Shown one piece after another: positions 7,206 to 62,700 of a stretch of DNA of 64,000 nt. The stretch lies in contig NC_079880.1 of NCBI RefSeq assembly GCF_029227915.1, forward strand, positions 19,643,855 through 19,707,854, written 5' to 3'. Source of the DNA: Hydractinia symbiolongicarpus. Lineage: Eukaryota. The notes under the pieces were generated by a model that made no database searches, was not told the DNA's origin, and was given only the letters and a program-made list of their open reading frames with translations. The position numbers and the translations under genes were made by a program. The stretch's first letter is position 1, and every line of letters starts with the position of its first letter.

Positions 7206-8644
7206 AAAAGACCTAATAATGATGACTTATTGTAAATTTTTTATCTAAATGTCAATTTAAAAGATATAATAACTGCTAAACTAACAACACGAGTAAACAT
7301 TGCTCTTGCATTGTTCTCACTAAATTTAAACACAATTTGTATGGTGTTCTCACGTACCTCTTTACAGAGCCTTAATCAATATTTTTTTGAATTACAACAT
7401 GCATTAAAATCACTGTCAAGGGCGCAAAACTCACAGTTTTAGTCTGTATATTTGACCTTTGTTTTGTATTTCAGAGTACAACTTTAAAGCCAATCAGTAT
7501 CTGTTTAATAACACCCACACATTGAGTCAACAAATGTGTAGCTTGTGTATTTCACTTTTAGTTTGTGATTATTTTGATGACATGTTTATTGTGTGGAACT
7601 ATGTAAAATGTAATTATCTGTTTGTGGTGAAATGAAAGAATATTGAAAGTGAACCTTTGTGGGTAAAAAGGAAAGAAAAATAATTAAGATTTGTCATTAT
7701 ATGAAAAATTAAAACATGAAGGTCAAAGTGAACCTTGAATATAGTGGAAATAGAGGTCATGCAAGTTTTCAAATAACAGATTATATAAAAACTTATTATT
7801 AAACTATTAATAAAACTATTATTTTCAAATAACAGATTATTTGAAAACTTAGTGCTACATTCTTAATTCCACCATAGAAGAAATTTTATAGACACTGCAA
7901 AGCAGACATCCAAATGATATCAATCTATAAGAAATTAAAAAAATCGGCACCAATATTCTGTTATTTTTGCCTTGTCGAATCGAACGTGACTTTTTCTGCT
8001 AGATTTAACTGAATTTATGTGAACTTAAAACATTCTCGTTCCCAGAGCTCTTTGAGATGTTTTATCTTAAAGGCTCGGATTTCTTGAGCATCGCCTCTCT
8101 AGGGTGAAGTAGGTGGTCTGCAAAAAAACCTTATTATAACAAAACCATAATATTGGAATTGAATTTATTGTCCCAATCATTTTAATTAACGCAAGTGTGA
8201 TTTGCCCTTTGCCCTTTGAATTATAAAAACCATTATGTGCAAAAAAAATTTAGCTTTGGTCCCAGGACACCAGGCGATTCTAAACTGTGTTAAAATATCG
8301 ATAGACAGAATGCTTATTGGACATTGTCCTCATTATAAAACATTCTGCTCCACAATGTAATTGTCTGAAAAAGCAGAAATTGAGTTAGAAGAAATATAGT
8401 ACTTACTTATGTTACTTATGTTAACTTTTGAAGTTGTAGCTTCACCCCTATCGTGGACGACCGACGTCAGCCACTTCTTCGAACCCTACTTTTTGGACCT
8501 AACCAAACAACTAAGTCCCAAGACCTAAGTCTGCTGTCTATTTTCACAATTTTAGAGTATGAGTATGTTATGTACATAGACATTATTCACCCAATTGCTT
8601 GATTTCCTGGGATTGCATATAGTTTTATTGCCATCAATTATTCA

Positions 8645-10750: not shown

Positions 10751-12644
10751 AGGTTTTATATGGTAATGTCTCACTTTAGCAGCTAAGATCTTAGATTCTC
10801 TGTTCAATTTGTTCAAGACTATTTTGAAATAAAATTATGTGTTGCAAGATAGATCCACCACATACATGACACCTATGTCAAGCTAGGTGCCACAGAGCAT
10901 CTGGGTTAAACAGATTTCATACACAAAAAATAGTAAATCTTACATATACCCTGCTGTTTCTTTTACAGGTCTTTGAATCCACTACACTGTAGTGGTGTGG
11001 ATAGCTAACGTTGTTCACACAGGTTCCTAGCTAGCTTATCATGCTTTAGTTATACTCCCTTTTTTTAGCTCATGTCATGCCTCAGTTTACCTAGCTAGCT
11101 ATCTCAAAGACTGAGATAATAACTGAGTAGGTCTTACAATTTTTTTCTGTCAGTGGGGATAGACACTTTTTAACAACCCACCCAAATCGTACGATTTGCC
11201 TCTGGTATCATACCATCCAACAAACATTTCGCCACTTTTTTCAGTGTGGGTCACTTTCAAAACACATGACTCACTTCGGGGGATGTCGGATCGTTTCCTA
11301 GGCCGTCCGGCTTCTCACCATGGCTACGAACAAACGTATTTGCTGTGTTGTGCGATGGAAAATACAGAGCCCTGGAGCCGAGATAGCAAATTTATTTACT
11401 AGGTGTGGGTTGGAGAAATTTTATGCTGTCTCTTCTTTAACAATTTTACATACGAGTTGTTTGTAATTACAGTGAATAAGATGCCATCTCCACGTTTTCT
11501 TTTTTCCTTTCTAACGTGCGCATGGAGGCTAGGAAAAACTTCTTTTGCGCTATTCGATCACATCAAAAAGCGAAATAAAAGTCCTGGTGAAGAGATTGGT
11601 GTAAATAAAACGCGAGAAAGAGATATCTGAACAAATTCTGTATACGAGGAATCGTGCCATGTAAACGATCCTTTAAATCCGCGCTTTTCGTAACAAAACC
11701 AACGATTGTTGTTTTTTCTGCACCAAGAATGATTAGTGATTGACTTTCTTTTTTAACTCTAGTAGTATAACCTATGATAAACTAATCTATCAGTTACACG
11801 CAAAAAGCCATAGCACCAGAAATGCGAATTCGTTGCTACGGCTTCTTGCAATTCGCACGAACGATAGTAATGCTAGTTTTAAAGAAAAATTGTCTAGGCA
11901 GTAATTTATTAATCAGTAATTTACTTAAAGTAATTTATTTTTTCCAAACTTTTTTGCGGTCTGTGTTTTTGTTTTCTCCTTCTTTTTTTGCGACATGTTC
12001 TACTCACTGTTAATCCTGTCTAGGCTTTCCTTTATTTTCAGTGGCTCTTTTTGACTTTTAATATACATACACATATATTAGTTTTTTTGTTTTTACAATT
12101 TATAACTGTTTTCATCAGACAAGGATGTCGTTTGCTTTCACCTTTTCAACGGAGTCTATTGCGGTTTTAGTTTTTTTCACGTAACGACTTCTATGACGTG
12201 CATACTTTCTCTGTTCCATACATTCAGTTAGTTTTTAGCGTGACATTTTTTAAAGTGTTGATATTTATACAAAATGATATATATTTTGTAGTTTTTAGTT
12301 TTTCCAAACAGGATCCTATTTAATAGCAATAAAGAATACCTTTTTATATGTCATTCTGTAAAAGCATTATTTTAAATAAAAAAAAATTATAAATAAAACT
12401 ATATACGATACCTTCAAAAAAGTAAAGGTAATTTAACATGCAAGACCTTCTTTGAGTCCTCCAAAAAAAGATTGCGAGATTATATACGGTCCATTGTAAT
12501 ATTAGCCTGTAGAAAGATATTGTGTGGATGCGCTGGAAATCACCGTTACAACCTCCAACTCAGAAGGATAGCAACCACGTCTCCGGGACTCTTTATTAGT
12601 TTTTTATATTTGGATGACAATATAAAAAAGTAAAAAAAAAAAAG

Positions 12645-12740
12645 ATTCCCGTGGACGAGGTTGAGGAGAAGAATCATTTTCGTCCCCAGATCTCTCTGAG
12701 ATAAAGCCTACGTTCATCTCAAAGAGCTCTGGGGTTAAGA
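12645..12740. repeat. Degenerate or solo copies of the same TIR family. These are gtggacgaggttgagg, cgtccccagatctctctgagat and the inverted catctcaaagagctctgggg. Related solo motifs lie at 8038-8060 and 16058-16072.
   Basis: Recurrence of the motif in both orientations. Confidence 0.45.
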
Positions 12741-12864
12741 ATGGAGGAGGATTATCCTGACAAACAATTTTAAAGCTTCTTTGTGTAGAATAAGAGAAGG
12801 GGACTTCACCTGACATAAAAGTTTGACTACATTTGCTTGACTTTAGTCAATATTGATGCAAAAC

Positions 12865-12978
12865 CAACCTCGTTCCCAGGGCCTTTTGCCTTGTTGATGA
12901 AGTTGATAGCGGCGAAAAGGTTGTTGGCCACTCCGTAATAACGGCTCAGGGGCTACAAAACTCTGTGGACGAGGTTGG
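12865..12978. mobile_element. MITE-like element of 114 bp. Its TIRs are ccaacctcgttcccaggg and ctctgtggacgaggttgg. Its 8-bp TSD is tgcaaaac at 12857-12864 and agcaaaac at 12979-12986.
   Basis: The two termini are reverse complements of each other and the flanking 8-mers match at 7 of 8 positions. Confidence 0.6.
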
Positions 12979-13303
12979 AGCAAAACAATTTGGGAAAGAG
13001 GGTTAGGGAAAATATTGTGAACATTAAAAAGAAAAATGTGCAGGTTAGCTGGGTAATCTGAAGAACGGGTTAAACACTTCAAATGCTCAGAGATTGATTG
13101 CTTTTGAAATCTCAAAATATCACATACTTTTGTACATGTGAAAAGAAATACGGTGTAAACATATTTTTGAAAACCCCACTTCGTACCCAATATGATTTTC
13201 GTGTAAAAACTGAAAAAAATCTTAGACTTCACGGAAACAAAATTTGAGAGCTATTTTGAAACGGAATATTCCACTAATAAAATTTAACTCTTTAAATGTT
13301 AAA

Positions 13304-13375
13304 CCAACTTTATCCCCAGAATTGTTAGGATTTTTGTGTTGGATGGAATTTAAACAATCCCTGGGGACGAGATTG
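13304..13375. mobile_element. Short 72-bp MITE-like element of the same TIR family. Its TIRs are ccaactttatccccag and ctggggacgagattg. Its 8-bp TSD is atgtYaaa at 13296-13303 and 13376-13383.
   Basis: Direct reading of the sequence. Confidence 0.5.
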
Positions 13376-13731
13376 ATGTCAAATCAATGAGTTCTTTTTC
13401 ACGCTTGATTAACTAATTCGAAAACCACTGAGATAATTTATCATGCTGAATGATCTGCACGTTCGGGAACGAGCTGGCTAGCTTGCTGCAAAAATATCAG
13501 CCTGGTATTTGAACAGACGGAGACTTTAGAAGAAAGATAAAAGAAAAACAGAAACAACGAACTCCAAAGATCTTCAAAGGTCTACGCCGTGTACGTTTGA
13601 TAAGACGAATCAGCAGCAGATCCTCTTATTTTTAAAGGAGAATGTTCAAGACGTTGTAGCTTTAATAAGATAGACAAATCTGCAGCTGGAAATCCGAAAT
13701 ATTTAGTTTATCAATACTTGAAAAATCGGAT

Positions 13732-15771
13732 ATGCTCTTTTGCAGAATGTGCTCAGTATTCCTACGAATTATTTTACTCGCACAATGTTATTACTCATAC
13801 CAAGTCGAAAGGAGGACATCTGATGAGATATTTCATGTAGAAACACCGACTAATTGCAATCACGTGTTTTTTAACCAATCATTTGGCATTCTAACTAGTC
13901 CGTTTTTCCCATTAGGTTATCCGGATGGCACGTCGTGCAAGTGGAAAATAAAAATGGAGGAAGGGTCGCGAATTGTTTTGTCTATAAAAGCGTTTACGTT
14001 AGGTCTTGGTGACAGATTGGAAATAACAGAAAATAGTGAGACATCTATTTATAGTCTCGAACGCCCTCCAAATGACGTCATATTTTCATCAGGGAACGTC
14101 CTTTCTATACAACTAACAAGCAACAAGACCAAATCACAAGTTGTTGATCATACTATAAAAGAATTGAATGAGAATCACACCTTCTACGCAGTGTTCGAGA
14201 AGGAAGGCTGTGGTGGTTTGTTAACAGAGTCTAGTGGATACATAACTGTTCCATCATATATTCATTTATCACAAAAATCGCACCAATGCGCATGGACTAT
14301 ACTCGGCCCAGCAAATAAAGTCATCGATTTGCAGTTCTTACAATTTGATTTACCACCCGGTTCATGTCCATACACGAATATTTATCTACGGGAAGGAGAG
14401 CGCACTGCAGGTTATGTATTAGGAGATTTCTGTGAAGAAAACCCGCCTGTGAATGAATTGCGTTCTTCCAGTAATGTTATATACATTGCGTATAGAACAC
14501 GTCCAAATTTTCTCTCTGGTAGGGTCGAAATGCTTCCAACTGTAAAAATGTTTTATAAATTTTCAGAAGTATGCGGCGGAGAGCTTACGGGCTATTCTGG
14601 TTCTTTCGCTACTCCCAGAAGATGGCTGGACGACGTGTATTCATGTAACTGGACCATTAATGTTCCACAACAAAAATACGTGTCCCTGAACTTCAAGGAG
14701 TGGTCAGTGGCTCCTTTTATAGAGGACGAAGTACGAATTGTTGTTCCGAGTAAAAACGAAATTTACTGGTCGTCAAATACATCTCACCCGTCTAAAACTC
14801 TTGTTATACCAAGCAATAAAGTAGTTATATCACTCACTTCTCATAGGAAGAAGAGTTCACTCACCACTTTAAACTTTTATGGTGTATTCCAGGCTGTAGC
14901 TTCCATAGATAAACAATGTATTGACGTTGGATATAAACAGTTATTCATGTGTGACGAGTGGAAATATATTGATTGTTCATTGAAGTGTGACGGAGTGAAC
15001 GACTGCGATAACGCCATGGATGAAAACAACTGTCCGTTACAAAGTTTGGAAACAGCCATTGTTCTGACGCACCATCACGCCAAACCCCACAATGTCTCTC
15101 GTTATTCTGTCGCTCTATTTACCATTGTTGGAGTCCTCATGTTTATTCTTGTTGTTTGGATCATGATTGACAGGTTTTATAAAAAGGGTGAGCGTGCGAG
15201 CAGACCGCGCATGCGCATGACAAATAAATACCCACGCTCAGAGCAACCATATGTGCGACCTCCACCTTACGTAGAATATGACGAAAGTCAACCTGCAAAA
15301 ATAGATGCACCACCTCCGCCCTATAGTCTCTGCGAAGAAGCATCTTATTGCGATAATGAAAGCCTTCGAAGAGATATTACTGCAAGCGCCGCACGCAATA
15401 GGTATAATAACACTAATAACACATCAGTTGAAGACCAACCCATGGACGAATCTACTGAATTATTTCATGACACAGACATCTTAGGAAGCAGTGGCGACGT
15501 TGCAACACTTGATCCCGTTAATATACCGGATATCACCGACAATTTAGCAGATAATGACGATAATTCCGTCAGTATACACGATATAATCGACAGATCAGCA
15601 GAGAAGGATAGTGATTTGCAAAAAAATTTATATCCAGACGTAAACAATGAAACTAATAGGGACATAAGTGAAAGTACCGACACGTCATATGATAGCGATA
15701 ACGAGTTTTCGTCGGACGACAGTATGTCATTGCCTGATCAGGAAGCATATGCAAAACGATACGAAGACTAA
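13732..15771 (+). CDS. Intronless 679-aa type-I membrane protein. It has a signal peptide, three CUB domains, one LDL-receptor class A module, a TM helix, and a cytoplasmic tail with two PPxY motifs and an acidic Ser/Asp-rich C-terminus.
   Basis: The ORF is uninterrupted. It contains CUB Cys/Trp patterns (CxWxI... with YP..YP), the LDLa motif CDGVNDCDNAMDENNC, the hydrophobic stretch VALFTIVGVLMFILVVWIMI, and the motifs RPPPYVEY and PPPPYSL. Confidence 0.8.
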   Translation: MLFCRMCSVFLRIILLAQCYYSYQVERRTSDEIFHVETPTNCNHVFFNQSFGILTSPFFPLGYPDGTSCKWKIKMEEGSRIVLSIKAFTLGLGDRLEITENSETSIYSLERPPNDVIFSSGNVLSIQLTSNKTKSQVVDHTIKELNENHTFYAVFEKEGCGGLLTESSGYITVPSYIHLSQKSHQCAWTILGPANKVIDLQFLQFDLPPGSCPYTNIYLREGERTAGYVLGDFCEENPPVNELRSSSNVIYIAYRTRPNFLSGRVEMLPTVKMFYKFSEVCGGELTGYSGSFATPRRWLDDVYSCNWTINVPQQKYVSLNFKEWSVAPFIEDEVRIVVPSKNEIYWSSNTSHPSKTLVIPSNKVVISLTSHRKKSSLTTLNFYGVFQAVASIDKQCIDVGYKQLFMCDEWKYIDCSLKCDGVNDCDNAMDENNCPLQSLETAIVLTHHHAKPHNVSRYSVALFTIVGVLMFILVVWIMIDRFYKKGERASRPRMRMTNKYPRSEQPYVRPPPYVEYDESQPAKIDAPPPPYSLCEEASYCDNESLRRDITASAARNRYNNTNNTSVEDQPMDESTELFHDTDILGSSGDVATLDPVNIPDITDNLADNDDNSVSIHDIIDRSAEKDSDLQKNLYPDVNNETNRDISESTDTSYDSDNEFSSDDSMSLPDQEAYAKRYED

Positions 15772-16769
15772 AGCGGCAAATCTTAAAACAATTTTCAACG
15801 AAATATAAAATCGATAAAGTGCAAGGAAACAATCACCTATTTCAGTAAAAAGACTGATACAAAGTTTGACTTTACGCACACAGATGCAGCTTGGTATACT
15901 GTCCCTATACTGTCATCAGGATTGTATGAAACTTTCTGTCTGTTTACGTGTGTTAAAATCTTTAATTTGAACGTATTTTTAAGCAAAGTTGTTCTATCTT
16001 GTATCTTTTTGACATCGGGGCAGCGATACGAACGTCATGATGTCAGAATATAAGATGTCCTGGGGACGAGGTGGCATAAAATTTTACTGGCTGATTACAT
16101 TTTTTTTGTCCTAAAGCTTTTCCGCTTCAGGGACACATATACATGGTGTCCATCTCGTCACACCGACACTTTTCGTTGATGAGAAATTATATACAATACA
16201 TGAGAACGAGGCTAAATAAGCAGGACAGCACTGGGTATATCATCACCTAAAACTTTTATATTTTTGGAATAGCTCATTAATTTAGGAAAGTGATGAAAAC
16301 AATACGCGACAGAAAATTATCTGCGAAATTTACGAATATGTGCAAAGAAAAATTTACAAATAATAACTAAAAAAACATAAAATGCAAGTGTAAAATAATA
16401 ACAAATTTCCTTTTTAAAACACCGCAACCAAAGTTAATTTTGAGATATTTTTTAAAGGGCATTGAACCTTTCTCCAGAGGGCGTTGTTTGTATTTTTTTT
16501 TTATAAAATACTGCGTAAAATTATTTTTAAAAACGACAAAATCAAAATACAAGTTTAGTTAAACCACATTCTGCTAAAAATAAATTAAAATAAAAACGAA
16601 CGAAATCCCAAAGTTTTTATAGTATAATTGTCGAGCTTCTGTGGAAGTTAGATATTCGAGACAATCGAAATTTTATTGAAAATCTTACCGATCAAAGCCT
16701 GCTATTCTAAACGAACTTAAAACCGAACAATTTTATACGTATTTCCTAACTTCTTAATTTCAAATTTTA

Positions 16770-46058
<29,289 letters not shown>

Positions 46059-48048: not shown

Positions 48049-48726
48049 CGAATTCAAAGCAATTTACTAAAAAAGATTGAAACATTGCAATTCACAAAGC
48101 AGTATAATCTTGAAAAATGCAAAGCCAATATGTAAATGAATGGGTTTAGCCCATTTTTTTGCTTTTAAACTACATGCCCTCTGACGTTGTGTGGTGCAAT
48201 ACTTGTTGACCCAGAGGCCACAGCGGTTTCATTTTCTTCCAAAACAACAAAAATGCCATCGCTCTTCATCGTTGCTGATATCAACATAACAAGACTATAC
48301 TCAGGACCCCAGAACAGGGGCTTTACCTTGGAGGATTTTTTTTACAAGAAATAAAGAAGTGAGGAGTACCATACTTGTCCCCAGGGTTATCCCTTTCTTT
48401 TTTTGCAGGCGTTTTGTAGCAAAATAAAATGTGCTTTGTAAGTAAAGAATTTTAATGTCTTGTTTTCAAAATCAACATCGTTGAATTAGTGCAACAATCC
48501 AACAAGAAGTCAACAGTAAAAAAACAAAAATCTTGTTATAAAAGGTTGTTTATACAGTATAAATCCGAAAAATTAACATAAAGTGACGATTTTAAATAGC
48601 TGTAAAAAATGTTAGCAAGAGAATTGCAGCACACCAAAGAAAACTCAGTCTCGTTTCGAGAGCTTTCCTAACGCTGTCTGATATTTTTGAACTACAAAAT
48701 TTCTCTTTCTCAACATTGATCAATAT

Positions 48727-48838
48727 AGCACCCTCGTCCCTAGGTTTTTTTTGTCTTTTTGATATGACAAGACGACGAAAATTATTTTCGAGGTCATCTC
48801 CTATATCAAGAAGGCAAGAAACCCTGGGGACAAAGGTG
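48727..48838. mobile_element. MITE-like element of 112 bp, same TIR family as 12865-12978. Its TIRs are agcaccctcgtccctagg and ccctggggacaaaggtg. Its perfect 8-bp TSD is ATCAATAT at 48719-48726 and 48839-48846.
   Basis: The TIRs are reverse complements of each other and the flanking 8-mers are identical. Confidence 0.65.
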
Positions 48839-49347
48839 ATCAATATAGTTTAAGGACGACGGAAAGTTACAAAGAATGAAGGTCGACTCCAGCACCGTTT
48901 ACCTTGGGGCGGCGACGAGTTGCTAAAACTAGAATTCGTATAAATTCAAAATTAATATTCGAACGTTTAAGTGCTACATCGTCAATTACTTGCTTACTGT
49001 GCGCACAATTACTCAGAAATGTTTGGATACATCATTTATTTATTAAGTTTTAGTTCTTTAAATTAAGTTTTTTGCAACGCAGCTTTTTAAAATTTTGCAC
49101 AAACTTTGAGGTGGATCGTAAATAGCTCTGGGGTCGAGAATGCATTCATGGATTGTCTTAGCGACATCACTTTCGTTCTTCCTTCGTTTAAAGTCGTAGT
49201 GGTTTATATCATCCTCATCTCCAGAGTTTGTTACCTGATGTCGCAGCCGCCAGCGCTCACTTGAACACCTGGGGACAATATTGGCTTGGATTTATTTTTA
49301 CGGTGTCGCTATTGTTTCTACTGAAATGTCTGCAAAGCGATAACGTA

Positions 49348-61344: not shown

Positions 61345-62700
61345 TACATTTTGATGTTCCAGGGCGTGCCACTACAGATGCAATATTTTTACTCAGACAG
61401 CTTCAGGAAAAGTATTTAGGAAAGAAAAAGAATCTCTATTTTGCCCTTGTAGATTTAGAGAAAGCTTTTGATAGAGTGCCACATAAAGTTTTTTGGTAGG
61501 CTATGAGAAAATTAAGTGTGGATGAGTGGCTAGTTACAATGGTACAGTCTATGTACAGAAATGCTAGTTGTGTCAGGATTAATGATTCTATTAGTGATGA
61601 ATTTAGTGTAAATTTTGGTGTACATCAGGGTTCTGTACTTAGTCCTTTGTTGTTTCTTCTAGTCTTAAAAGCGCTGTCGATGGAGTTCAGAACAGGTTGT
61701 CCATGGAAGTTACTGTATGTAGATGATTTGGTTCTTATAGCAGAGTCAATGGAAAAATTAGTTGAAAAGTTTGAGAAGTGGAAGAAAGGACTAGAAGAGA
61801 AAGGGCTAAGGGTGAACACAGCAAAGTCTAAAGTCATGATTAGTAGCATTGCAGCCAAGTGTGACCTTGTAGTTGGAAAGTGGCCTTGTGGCGTTTGCAG
61901 GGAAGGGGTTGGTAGTAACTCCATTTTTTGTCAGACTTGCAAGCATTGGGTACATAAGAAGTGCAGTAGTATTGGTGGAAGGTTAGAGCTGACATTCAGT
62001 TTGTATGCAAGTGTTGCAAAGGTGAGATTATAGAGAATGAAGTATTTCCAGCTTCAGTGATGTACAACAGTGGCTCGTTAGAGATAGTTGAGAACTTCTG
62101 TTATTTAGGTGATATGTTGGGCAGTGAAGGGGGTGTTGAAAGAAGTGTTACTAGCAGAATAGGTTCTGCTTGGAAAAAGTTCAGAGAGTTGACTAGCTTC
62201 CTTTGTTGACTGGCAGAGTCTTGTCAATTGAGTTAAAAGGTAGGTTGTATGAGGTCTGTTTAAGAAGTGTTGTGTTTACGGCAGTGAGACATGGGCAGTA
62301 AAGCAGGAAGATAGTGACCGTTTAGAAAGGAATGATATAAGAATGGTTAGGGAGGATGTGTAACGCCAGTTTGAGAGACAGAAAGAGTTCAGATGAGCTA
62401 AGAAACAGGCTAAGTATCCATAGAATTAAAGATGTTATCCAGATAAGAAGACTGAATTGGCTCGGGCACTTGGAAAGAATGGAGGGGGATAATTGGGTAA
62501 GAAAGTGTAGAGACTTGATAGTTTCTGAAGCAAAGCCCAGAGGCAAACCGAGAAAGACTTGGCAGGAGGTTATAAGGACAGACTTGATACAGAGGAAGTT
62601 GAGTTTAGATCTAACACAGTCTAGATCAGATTGGAAGAGGGTCATTAATATACCCCGTCCAAACCATGCTAGCATGGAAAACGGACGTTAAGCCGAGAAT
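61345..62700 (+). mobile_element. 5'-truncated non-LTR retrotransposon (LINE). It holds RT motifs (FDRVPH, GVHQGSVLSPLLF, YVDDLVLIA), a Cys-rich segment and a degraded C-terminal region (RLNWLGHLERM...GKPRKTWQEV). One in-frame TAG lies at 61497.
   Basis: ORFs 61275-61499, 61503-62033 and 62356-62691(+) are in the same frame. The RT frame is continuous with DLAT exon 61164-61331 through the donor. Confidence 0.8.

Follow-up and report, generated by a model that had tools for sequence, protein, structure and literature searches.

The window, that is, the whole 64-kb stretch of Hydractinia symbiolongicarpus DNA analysed here, contains an intronless receptor gene with a CUB-LDLa ORF (13732-15771) and a set of short repeats sharing the terminal motif CCTGGGGACGAGG. 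Twenty matches to this motif with three or fewer mismatches were found in the window, compared to 1.65 expected, and none of 100 shuffled windows reached 20 matches. The motif terminates at least seven short inverted-repeat elements and occurs in addition as three solo ends. One cluster of these spans 12.57-13.38 kb and the other 48.3-49.3 kb. The elements are 69-113 bp long, non-coding and hairpin-forming, with end pairs in the proper orientation. They are listed below together with the solo ends; E3, E4 and E5 correspond to copies 1, 2 and 3, respectively, of a preliminary description of this DNA.

8031..8114 (left boundary approximate), minus strand: E7, degenerate E2-like copy, right end CATCTCAAAGAGCTCTGGGAACGAGAATG, left end CACCTACTTCACCCTAGAG
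12572..12663, plus strand: E1, 92 bp, A/T-rich core, ends CAACCACGTCTCCGGGA and TCCCGTGGACGAGGTTG, lower confidence
12675..12743, plus strand: E2, 69 bp, nearly all hairpin, ends CATTTTCGTCCCCAGA and CTCTGGGGTTAAGAATG
12865..12977, plus strand: E3, 113 bp, left end CAACCTCGTTCCCAGGGCCTTTTGCC
13305..13375, plus strand: E4, 71 bp, right end CCCTGGGGACGAGATTG
16059..16074, plus strand: solo right end, perfect 13-mer CCTGGGGACGAGGTG(G), zero mismatches
48370..48385, minus strand: solo left end CATACTTGTCCCCAGG(GTTATCCC), two mismatches
48729..48838, plus strand: E5, 110 bp, long hairpin, ends CACCCTCGTCCCTAGG and CCCTGGGGACAAAGGTG
49127..49142, plus strand: solo degenerate right end TCTGGGGTCGAGAATG, three mismatches, low confidence when taken alone
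49210..49283, plus strand: E6, candidate of 74 bp with decayed ends CATCCTCATCTCCAGA and CCTGGGGACAATATTG, low confidence

The true termini are symmetric and read 5'-CA(A/C/T)CCTCGTCCCCAGG...CCTGGGGACGAGG(N)TG-3'. The three copies named in the preliminary description do exist and carry inverted ends, but the ends drawn for them were asymmetric with respect to the inverted repeat, with a surplus G to the right of copy 1, a surplus C to the left of copy 2 and a surplus AG to the left of copy 3. The direct repeats reported next to them, tgcaaaac/agcaaaac (7/8), atgttaaa/atgtcaaa (7/8) and ATCAATAT (8/8), are real as strings, whereas their reading as 8-bp target site duplications had to be abandoned: the symmetric ends give duplications of 9, 9 and 10 bp, and the in-register 8-mers match at 3/8 positions in each copy. 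E3 is thus flanked by atgcaaaac/gagcaaaac (7/9), E4 by atgttaaac/atgtcaaat (7/9) and E5 by the perfect 10-bp repeat ATCAATATAG (10/10, against 3/8 at n = 8). A 9-bp duplication, gagaagaat/gaggaggat, also surrounds E2 (7/9, against 0/8 at n = 8), giving three window elements with 7/9 and one with 10/10, where the chance of a flank match of at least 7/9 is ~0.0025 per element. Three candidates lack clear duplications: E1, in which the best flanks are unconvincing (2/9, 6/10), E7, in which the duplication is weak (5/9 by hand count), and E6, in which the motif is matched at 49213 on one strand and at 49268 on the other and the arms agree at 9/16.

Four of the six elements tested by folding gave hairpins with z-scores of -4.0 to -5.8. 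These are E1 (-20.2 kcal/mol, z = -5.8; arms agreeing at 20/25 positions), E5 (-22.2 kcal/mol, z = -5.3), E2 (z = -4.3; arms of 31 nt, 77% complementary) and E3 (z = -4.0; arms of 16 nt, 88% complementary), while E4 gave z = -2.1 and E6 did not rise above the shuffles. The window copies are old and decayed, and their arms match one another at 9-13 of 16 positions. Alignment of E7 to the E2 region revealed the common sequence CATCTCAAAGAGCTCTGGG...GAGAATG, with the motif match of E7 at 8034-8046 on the minus strand. Part of what had been taken for solo motifs was thereby accounted for: the sequence at 12686-12738 belongs to the complete 69-bp element E2, that at 12649 is the right end of the 92-bp element E1, and that at 8038-8060 belongs to the degenerate E7, leaving 16059-16074, 48370-48385 and 49127-49142 as the true solo ends. 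A partner for the end at 16059..16074 was looked for and none was found. BLAST search of the three named copies against the window gave matches confined to the ends, with non-homologous interiors, and alignments of the trimmed interiors compared with shuffles likewise found them unrelated, except for a weak signal between E3 and E5 (z = 3.1). The interiors being unrelated between copies, the group is defined by its terminal inverted repeats (TIRs) only, and its end pattern can be written as a genome query, CANCCTCGTCCCCAGG ... CCTGGGGACGAGGNTG. An Rfam scan of the window returned no family.

The same terminus turned up in scleractinian coral DNA when metagenomes were scanned. About 60 of 120 metagenome loci are low in G+C and carry the motif at repeat ends, and the permease encoded in one of them, L106, is 89% identical to that of Oculina patagonica, indicating that the metagenome relatives are coral host DNA. 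The 81 ends compared have the subterminal sequence GGAGAAGGC|CCTGGGGACGAGGTTG conserved and give the TIR consensus 5'-CAACCTCGTCCCCAGGGCCTTCTCC...-3'; each position within the end carries 0.1-0.9 bit of information, falling to 0.06 bit or less just outside, right after the ...TG. The coral relatives are 46-482 bp long and include a subfamily of 320-350 bp, the copies of which are 82-89% identical and whose alignments terminate exactly at CA...TG, and a GCCGCCATTTTG box recurs in coral copies. Among the 21 two-ended relatives, the duplication is 9 bp in 15, 10 bp in three and 8 bp in none, whereas mismatched flank pairs, used as the null, never reached 7/9. The Oculina genome (L124) yielded one variant element, flanked by a perfect 9-bp duplication, and Acropora (L126) one end. 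The core of the preliminary description, a family of short MITE-like elements, is borne out by several non-coding copies with sharp boundaries, inverted termini and duplications, and by relatives with the same ends and clean duplications.

A profile (HMM) of the coral ends picked out window ends at E = 7e-6, 2e-3 and 2e-3, namely the left end of E3 at 12865-12889 (E = 6.9e-6, the best match to the coral consensus in the window), the right end of E4 (E = 0.0017) and the solo end at 16059..16074 (E = 0.0022). Both ends of E5 (E = 0.064 and 0.14) and the solo left end at 48370..48385 (E = 0.088) were also matched. An end sequence of ~16-25 nt is therefore common to the hydrozoan window and to corals, which is mildly notable. 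No copies were seen in samples of 13-23 kb from Hydra (L122, L123), two other hydrozoan-like assemblies (Tara loci L128-131) and Nematostella (L125), apparent matches in L128-131 being conserved coding sequence; either the distribution is patchy or samples of this size are too small. A scan of viral contigs gave five matches, which were dismissed as chance given a G+C content of 50-63% and a missing subterminal context. Comparison of L106 with Oculina L124 for an empty site gave an alignment in the coding region only, and neither an empty site nor an insertion polymorphism turned up.

The search for an autonomous partner covered both the window and the coral loci. When the ORFs of the window with 120 aa or more were scanned against Pfam, no transposase was detected, the only matches being WD40, STAND NTPase and a reverse-transcriptase fragment, and none was found in ~310 kb of coral-like loci. 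The ORFs adjoining the coral ends are host genes, encoding a permease, a GPCR, a sulfotransferase and an acetyltransferase, and neither the window elements nor the coral relatives contain a transposase ORF. Neither the window nor the coral loci yielded a MULE transposase with the family's CA...TG ends, and no hAT transposase bounded by such ends was found in the window or the fetched loci. An apparent end pair 4.2 kb apart in L109 showed no duplication and was assigned to two separate elements.

Taken together, the results identify the repeats in front of the CUB-LDLa gene as genuine miniature DNA transposons, an ordinary and decayed MITE family. It is very probable that they are TIR-defined MITEs mobilised in trans by what was likely a Mutator-like enzyme making a staggered cut of 9, or sometimes 10, bp. 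Since no autonomous partner was found, the superfamily was assigned from duplication length alone, by which the most likely source is a Mutator-like (MULE/Foldback-type) enzyme, not a hAT enzyme. On this model, an autonomous element outside the window would supply a transposase that binds the ~16-25 nt ends, excises the element at its CA...TG termini and reinserts it where the target is cut with a stagger of 9 nt or, less often, 10 nt; repair of this cut would leave the flanking duplication. As only the ends would be needed, unrelated short sequences of 46-482 bp could be mobilised, which would account for copies without common interiors. Repeated insertion at preferred sites would explain the two clusters in the window, one of which occupies the 1.2 kb preceding the CUB-LDLa gene. 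The structure of the elements points to past mobility, and the same ends in scleractinian corals suggest that the pairing of transposase and ends dates far back in Cnidaria or else was passed between lineages.

Duplication length is also what decides against the source proposed in the preliminary description, hAT-derived MITEs with 8-bp duplications moved by a hAT transposase. hAT elements have the terminal pattern 5'-YARNG and duplications of 8 bp, and Merlin elements duplications of 8-9 bp. The ends described here start with CAA or CAG, fitting the first three positions of YARNG, and the flanking 8-mers match at 7/8, 7/8 and 8/8 as long as the ends are drawn asymmetrically; however, the fifth base of the end is C instead of G (CAACC, CAGCC), the symmetric ends give the poor 8-mer matches noted above, no relative has an 8-bp duplication and no hAT transposase turned up in the loci searched, so that a hAT origin now appears very improbable. 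A more serious but still unlikely competitor is another superfamily with 8-10 bp duplications, either Merlin/IS1016-like or unclassified with CA...TG ends. Duplications of 9 bp would suit Merlin as well, CA...TG ends are not usual for MULEs, and both the missing partner and the absence of the exact end sequence from the relevant papers of the searchable literature are compatible with such an origin. On the other hand, 10-bp cases are present and 8-bp cases absent, to which the 9-10/9-11 bp range of MULEs is better suited, and short ends of 14-40 bp have been documented in several MULE groups (PMC6446971). Less likely again, and rather doubtful, is an undescribed transposon lineage with CAACCTCGTCCCCAGG ends and a 9-bp duplication, representing an unrecognised transposase clade, as the atypical ends may suggest, or horizontal movement between corals and hydrozoans. 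Such movement, if true, would explain both a near-identical 16-25 nt end across classes that split more than half a billion years ago and the lack of copies in the small Hydra, Millepora-like and Nematostella samples.

The clustering upstream of the CUB-LDLa ORF, already claimed in the preliminary description, is real (P ~0.004). The ATG is preceded by four elements at distances of 357-1160 bp. Transcript contigs of close relatives, L001 and L127, are 93-95% identical to the CUB-LDLa gene of the window and start downstream of the elements, aligning from 13490 and 13471, respectively, which places E4 ~100 bp upstream of their 5' end; the solo end at 16059..16074 lies ~70 bp beyond the end of the L127 alignment (15992). 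An exact look-up of the CUB-LDLa protein of the window returned no record. It could be argued that the repeats are host regulatory or structural palindromes under selection, or elements exapted as parts of the CUB-LDLa promoter, in view of their position, of a ~16-nt core that, unlike the interiors, is conserved between the hydrozoan window and corals, and of the recurrent GCCGCCATTTTG box in the coral copies. The strong form of this proposal is refuted by the 9-bp duplications and the unrelated sequence at each site, which demonstrate insertion rather than conservation in place. Moreover, no gene could be recognised near the second cluster (48.3-49.3 kb), and the window ends are themselves decaying, which argues against selection on the window copies, and a regulatory origin is thus considered a marginal prospect. 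With four copies in the 1.2 kb before an intronless receptor gene, promoter exaptation is nonetheless a testable, so far unsupported, case. Chance inverted motifs in A/T-rich DNA may well explain single matches with three mismatches, given the ~1.65 expected per window, but as an account of the core set chance is refuted and can be set aside almost entirely: no shuffle reached the observed number of matches, the ends are paired in the correct orientation with duplications, and an independent profile from another animal class selects the same sites.

Compared with known systems, the family most closely recalls MULEs and their Foldback-type relatives, with some differences at the ends. Classic MULE ends start with G (GAG or GGG) and classic Mu ends are long, while those of the present family are simple, CA-initial and 16-25 nt long. 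The conserved end, together with arms reaching 31-45 nt in E2 and E5, falls on the short side of the MULE range, in which inverted ends span 14-500 bp and are often long (PMC6446971). Duplications in MULEs are 8-11 bp, with 9 bp in most groups, and insertion near genes has been reported (PMC6446971). Similarly, Tm1, a Mutator/Foldback family of root-knot nematodes, has mostly 9-bp duplications (range 8-10) and MITE-like members (PMC3169594), its ends differing in being composites of tandem sub-repeats. MULEs and Tm1 share with the window family mostly 9-bp duplications, no target consensus, short non-coding MITE-like forms and inverted ends that can turn the whole element into a hairpin. hAT MITEs are comparable in being short and non-autonomous with ends starting CA(A/G), and differ in their 8-bp duplications, those here being 9-10 bp with none of the 21 relatives at 8.

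The TIR-defined plant MITEs Stowaway and Tourist are heterogeneous short elements with ends and duplication type in common; related transposases cross-mobilise them, and they are enriched in the neighbourhood of genes. The present elements resemble them in being alike only in ends and duplication type, but Stowaway and Tourist belong to Tc1/mariner (TA) and PIF/Harbinger (TAA), with other ends and other hosts. CMITE of Acropora is another MITE of ~100 bp in a cnidarian genome, derived from piggyBac, with TTAA duplications, CC(C/T)T ends, a conserved 75-nt interior and variable ends (PMC2872659); the present group has conserved CA ends, unrelated interiors and 9-bp non-TTAA duplications, and identity with this unrelated piggyBac group was rejected. 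GingerRoot was rejected because of its 6-bp duplications, and mJing was dropped as a Mutator MITE comparator, being PIF/Harbinger according to its own paper.

These findings leave the current view of transposon biology unchanged. For annotation, the appropriate label when masking the elements is DNA-transposon relic with a 9-bp duplication, not hAT, and the consensus end CAACCTCGTCCCCAGGGCCTTCTCC provides a usable probe for a census of the family and for its autonomous partner in cnidarian genomes. One end sequence on very heterogeneous short elements in corals and a hydrozoan could date an old partnership of transposase and end or reveal horizontal transfer.

Isolated matches with three mismatches, such as those at 11371, 11583, 50214, 50493 and 54639 of the window, are probably due to chance. 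The ORFs of L055 gave no match in Pfam or in the other fetched loci and appear phage-like by eye, and an ORF in L106 resembles the tail of a retroelement protein.

The end motif CCTGGGGACGAGG was found 20 times in the window at no more than three mismatches, compared with 1.65 ± 1.29 times in shuffled sequences, none of which reached 20. When the matches were turned to one orientation, the conserved block ran on as CCTGGGGACGAGG-N-TG and similarity stopped there, which sets the termini as 5'-CA(N)CCTCGTCCCCAGG and CCTGGGGACGAGG(N)TG-3'. Defining an element as a minus-strand match followed by a plus-strand match gave the following inverted-repeat elements (E1–E7) and solo ends:

12572-12663, E1, 92 bp
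12675-12743, E2, 69 bp
12865-12977, E3, 113 bp, first copy of the preliminary description
13305-13375, E4, 71 bp, second copy of that description
48729-48838, E5, 110 bp, third copy of that description
49210-49283, E6, 74 bp, weak candidate
~8031-8114, minus strand, E7, ~84 bp, degenerate E2-like copy
16059-16074, solo end, perfect 13-mer
48370-48385, solo end
49127-49142, solo end

Hairpin folding was far better than in shuffles for four of the six elements tested (z -4.0 to -5.8), while E4 reached only z = -2.1 and E6 was no better than shuffles. No Rfam family was found in the window. Several decayed ends of the same group lie within 48.3-49.3 kb, and CCTTGGGGcggcgACGAGTTG (48902-48922) resembles by eye a further right end with a 5-nt insertion. 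The motif excess, the paired ends and the 9-bp duplications of relatives uphold the proposal of a short MITE-like family. Two motifs previously listed as solo belong to elements, 12649 being the right end of E1 and 12686-12738 being E2, while the one near 16058 is a genuine solo end.

Target site duplications were scored in register with the symmetric CA...TG ends:

E2, gagaagaat / gaggaggat, 7/9 (0/8 when scored at 8 bp)
E3, atgcaaaac / gagcaaaac, 7/9 (3/8 at 8 bp)
E4, atgttaaac / atgtcaaat, 7/9 (3/8 at 8 bp)
E5, ATCAATATAG / ATCAATATAG, 10/10 (3/8 at 8 bp)

At the base composition of the window, 7/9 or better is expected by chance at about 0.25% of sites; because the copies are old, the window alone is insufficient to decide between 8 and 9 bp. 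The 8-bp repeats reported for E3, E4 and E5 are real strings (7/8, 7/8 and 8/8), but they need boundaries placed asymmetrically about the inverted repeat and fall to 3/8 when these are symmetric.

Relatives came from one metagenome scan with CCTGGGGACGAGGNTG as query, which matched at least 120 loci. About half of the matches listed are chance prokaryotic matches, high in G+C (49-73%) and random in their context; the other ~60 loci among those listed (36-48% G+C) come from few sample series (Ga01263xx, Ga00998xx, OFE*). In these low-G+C loci the motif ends repeats with a conserved subterminal ...GGAGAAGGC|CCTGGGGACGAGGTTG and divergence directly after TTG, the information content being 0.1-0.9 bit per position within the end versus at most 0.06 bit outside. 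These contigs are animal host DNA; they carry genes for a rhodopsin-type GPCR, a sulfotransferase and an amino-acid permease, the last with 89% identity to the scleractinian Oculina patagonica versus 55-59% to sea anemones. Copies of one coral subfamily, a MITE of 320-350 bp, are 82-89% identical, and their alignments end exactly at CA...TG. A variant in the O. patagonica genome (L124, 20793-20911, 119 bp, ends CTGACTCGTCCCCAGT) carries a perfect 9-bp duplication, TGTAAATAT; given this variant and a CAGCC-ended coral subfamily, the core CTCGTCCCCAG is all that stays constant from one subgroup to another. A profile built from coral ends only picked the window ends at 12865 (E = 7e-6), 13371 (E = 2e-3) and 16072 (E = 2e-3), and the left end of E3 tracks the coral consensus for ~25 nt (CAACCTCGTTCCCAGGGCCTTTTGCC versus CAACCTCGTCCCCAGGGCCTTCTCC).

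Duplication length was measured in 21 two-ended relatives, the Oculina variant included. Fifteen are flanked by 9 bp with at most two mismatches (10 of the 21 with at most one) and three by 10 bp; duplications of 8, 7, 6 or 11 bp occurred in none, and flanks paired across different elements never reached 7/9.

The window repeats are thus non-autonomous cut-and-paste DNA transposons, a decayed and ordinary MITE group. The window copies share no interior sequence with each other or with the coral copies, and coral members range from 46 bp (L045, scarcely more than two ends, with a perfect 9-bp duplication) to 480 bp, which leaves the end itself as the common denominator; presumably a transposase acting in trans would bind and cleave it. 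A constant 9-nt stagger, at times 10, is the signature of Mutator-like elements (MULEs). Duplications of MULEs are 8-11 bp, and 9 bp in most groups (PMC6446971), while Tm1, an animal Mutator/Foldback family with MITE-like members, makes mostly 9-bp duplications (range 8-10) without target consensus (PMC3169594); the prevailing length is the same as in the window and coral group. A Mutator-like origin is therefore what we infer, and only infer, since the search for an autonomous partner with the same ends found no transposase in the window or the coral loci, CA-initial ends are not known to be typical of classic MULEs, and the group might instead derive from Merlin-type elements, which make 8-9 bp duplications, or from an unclassified superfamily. 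hAT elements, to which the preliminary description assigned the repeats, generate 8-bp duplications, and the 9-nt stagger leaves that origin unsupported. The earlier account of the repeats was largely right; its boundaries and duplication length were wrong, and hence its hAT assignment.

CMITE, an Acropora coral MITE group, is different: it duplicates TTAA, has the CCCTT ends of piggyBac and keeps its interior conserved (PMC2872659), whereas the interiors of the window copies are unrelated. GingerRoot was ruled out, as it makes 6-bp duplications. Our literature search found the exact end sequence in no relevant paper, and a Repbase or Dfam entry may well exist. What stands above the ordinary is an end of 16-25 nt common to the hydrozoan-like window genome and scleractinians. 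Samples of 13-23 kb from Hydra, Nematostella and two further hydrozoan-like assemblies showed no copies; their size is insufficient to tell horizontal transfer apart from vertical inheritance that is patchy.

A GCCGCCAT(T/A)TTG box lies ~20-30 nt inside each end in many of the coral copies (for example L033 2399-2505, L061 4967-5049, L091 1860-1933 and L109 986-1045), and we take this box to resemble the YY1-type GCCAT core; if it is such a site, the coral MITEs would spread a transcription-factor site. In L035, L043, L093 (12367-12572) and L120 (3791-4060) the end motif is embedded in a larger repeat of 200-270 bp that remains homologous for ~30 bp beyond ...TTG; either another repeat has captured a MITE, or a distinct repeat contains an end-like sequence.

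The ten insertion sites fall into two clusters (median nearest-neighbour distance 352 bp versus ~2800 bp for random placement, P ~0.004). As previously proposed, one lies upstream of the CUB-LDLa gene, a putative intronless receptor gene, with E1–E4 357-1160 bp from its ATG; the second, at 48.3-49.3 kb, adjoins no recognisable gene. The long ORF (13732-15771) encodes a 679-aa CUB-domain protein with an LDLa-like motif spotted by eye; its closest named relative is from Hydra vulgaris (45% identity), anthozoan matches are absent, and relatives at 45-50% include Tara metagenome assembly contigs. On these grounds the source is taken to be a hydrozoan-like cnidarian. Two Logan transcript-like contigs, L001 (aligned to 13490-15796) and L127 (13471-15992), are 93-95% identical to the window, and their 5' limits place the transcript start near 13.47-13.49 kb. 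E4 is located ~100 bp ahead of the 5' end of the transcript, and the solo end at 16059 ~70 bp past its 3' end. Insertion near genes has been reported for MULEs (PMC6446971). The decaying ends give no sign of selection on the window elements.

Nucleotides 1-23 of L127 (tccttcctcttcttctggtcctg) do not align to window ~13448-13470, upstream of GAGCTGGCTAGC; possible causes are sequence divergence, a leader, an alternative 5' exon and a chimeric assembly. A GTG-initiated 129-aa ORF (12843-13232, minus strand) overlapping E3 and intergenic spacer was treated as non-coding. The window is A/T-rich (27-41% G+C in 2-kb steps). A 176-aa ORF at 61503-62033 (plus strand), in which a reverse transcriptase match (RVT_1, E = 1e-14) precedes a PHD-type zinc finger, is a retroelement fragment with no relation to the MITEs. 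On the minus strand, the ORFs at 21166-21834, 23375-23881 and 32094-32699 contain WD40 repeats and a P-loop of the STAND/AAA NTPase type, and look like exons of a single large NACHT/WD40-type gene.
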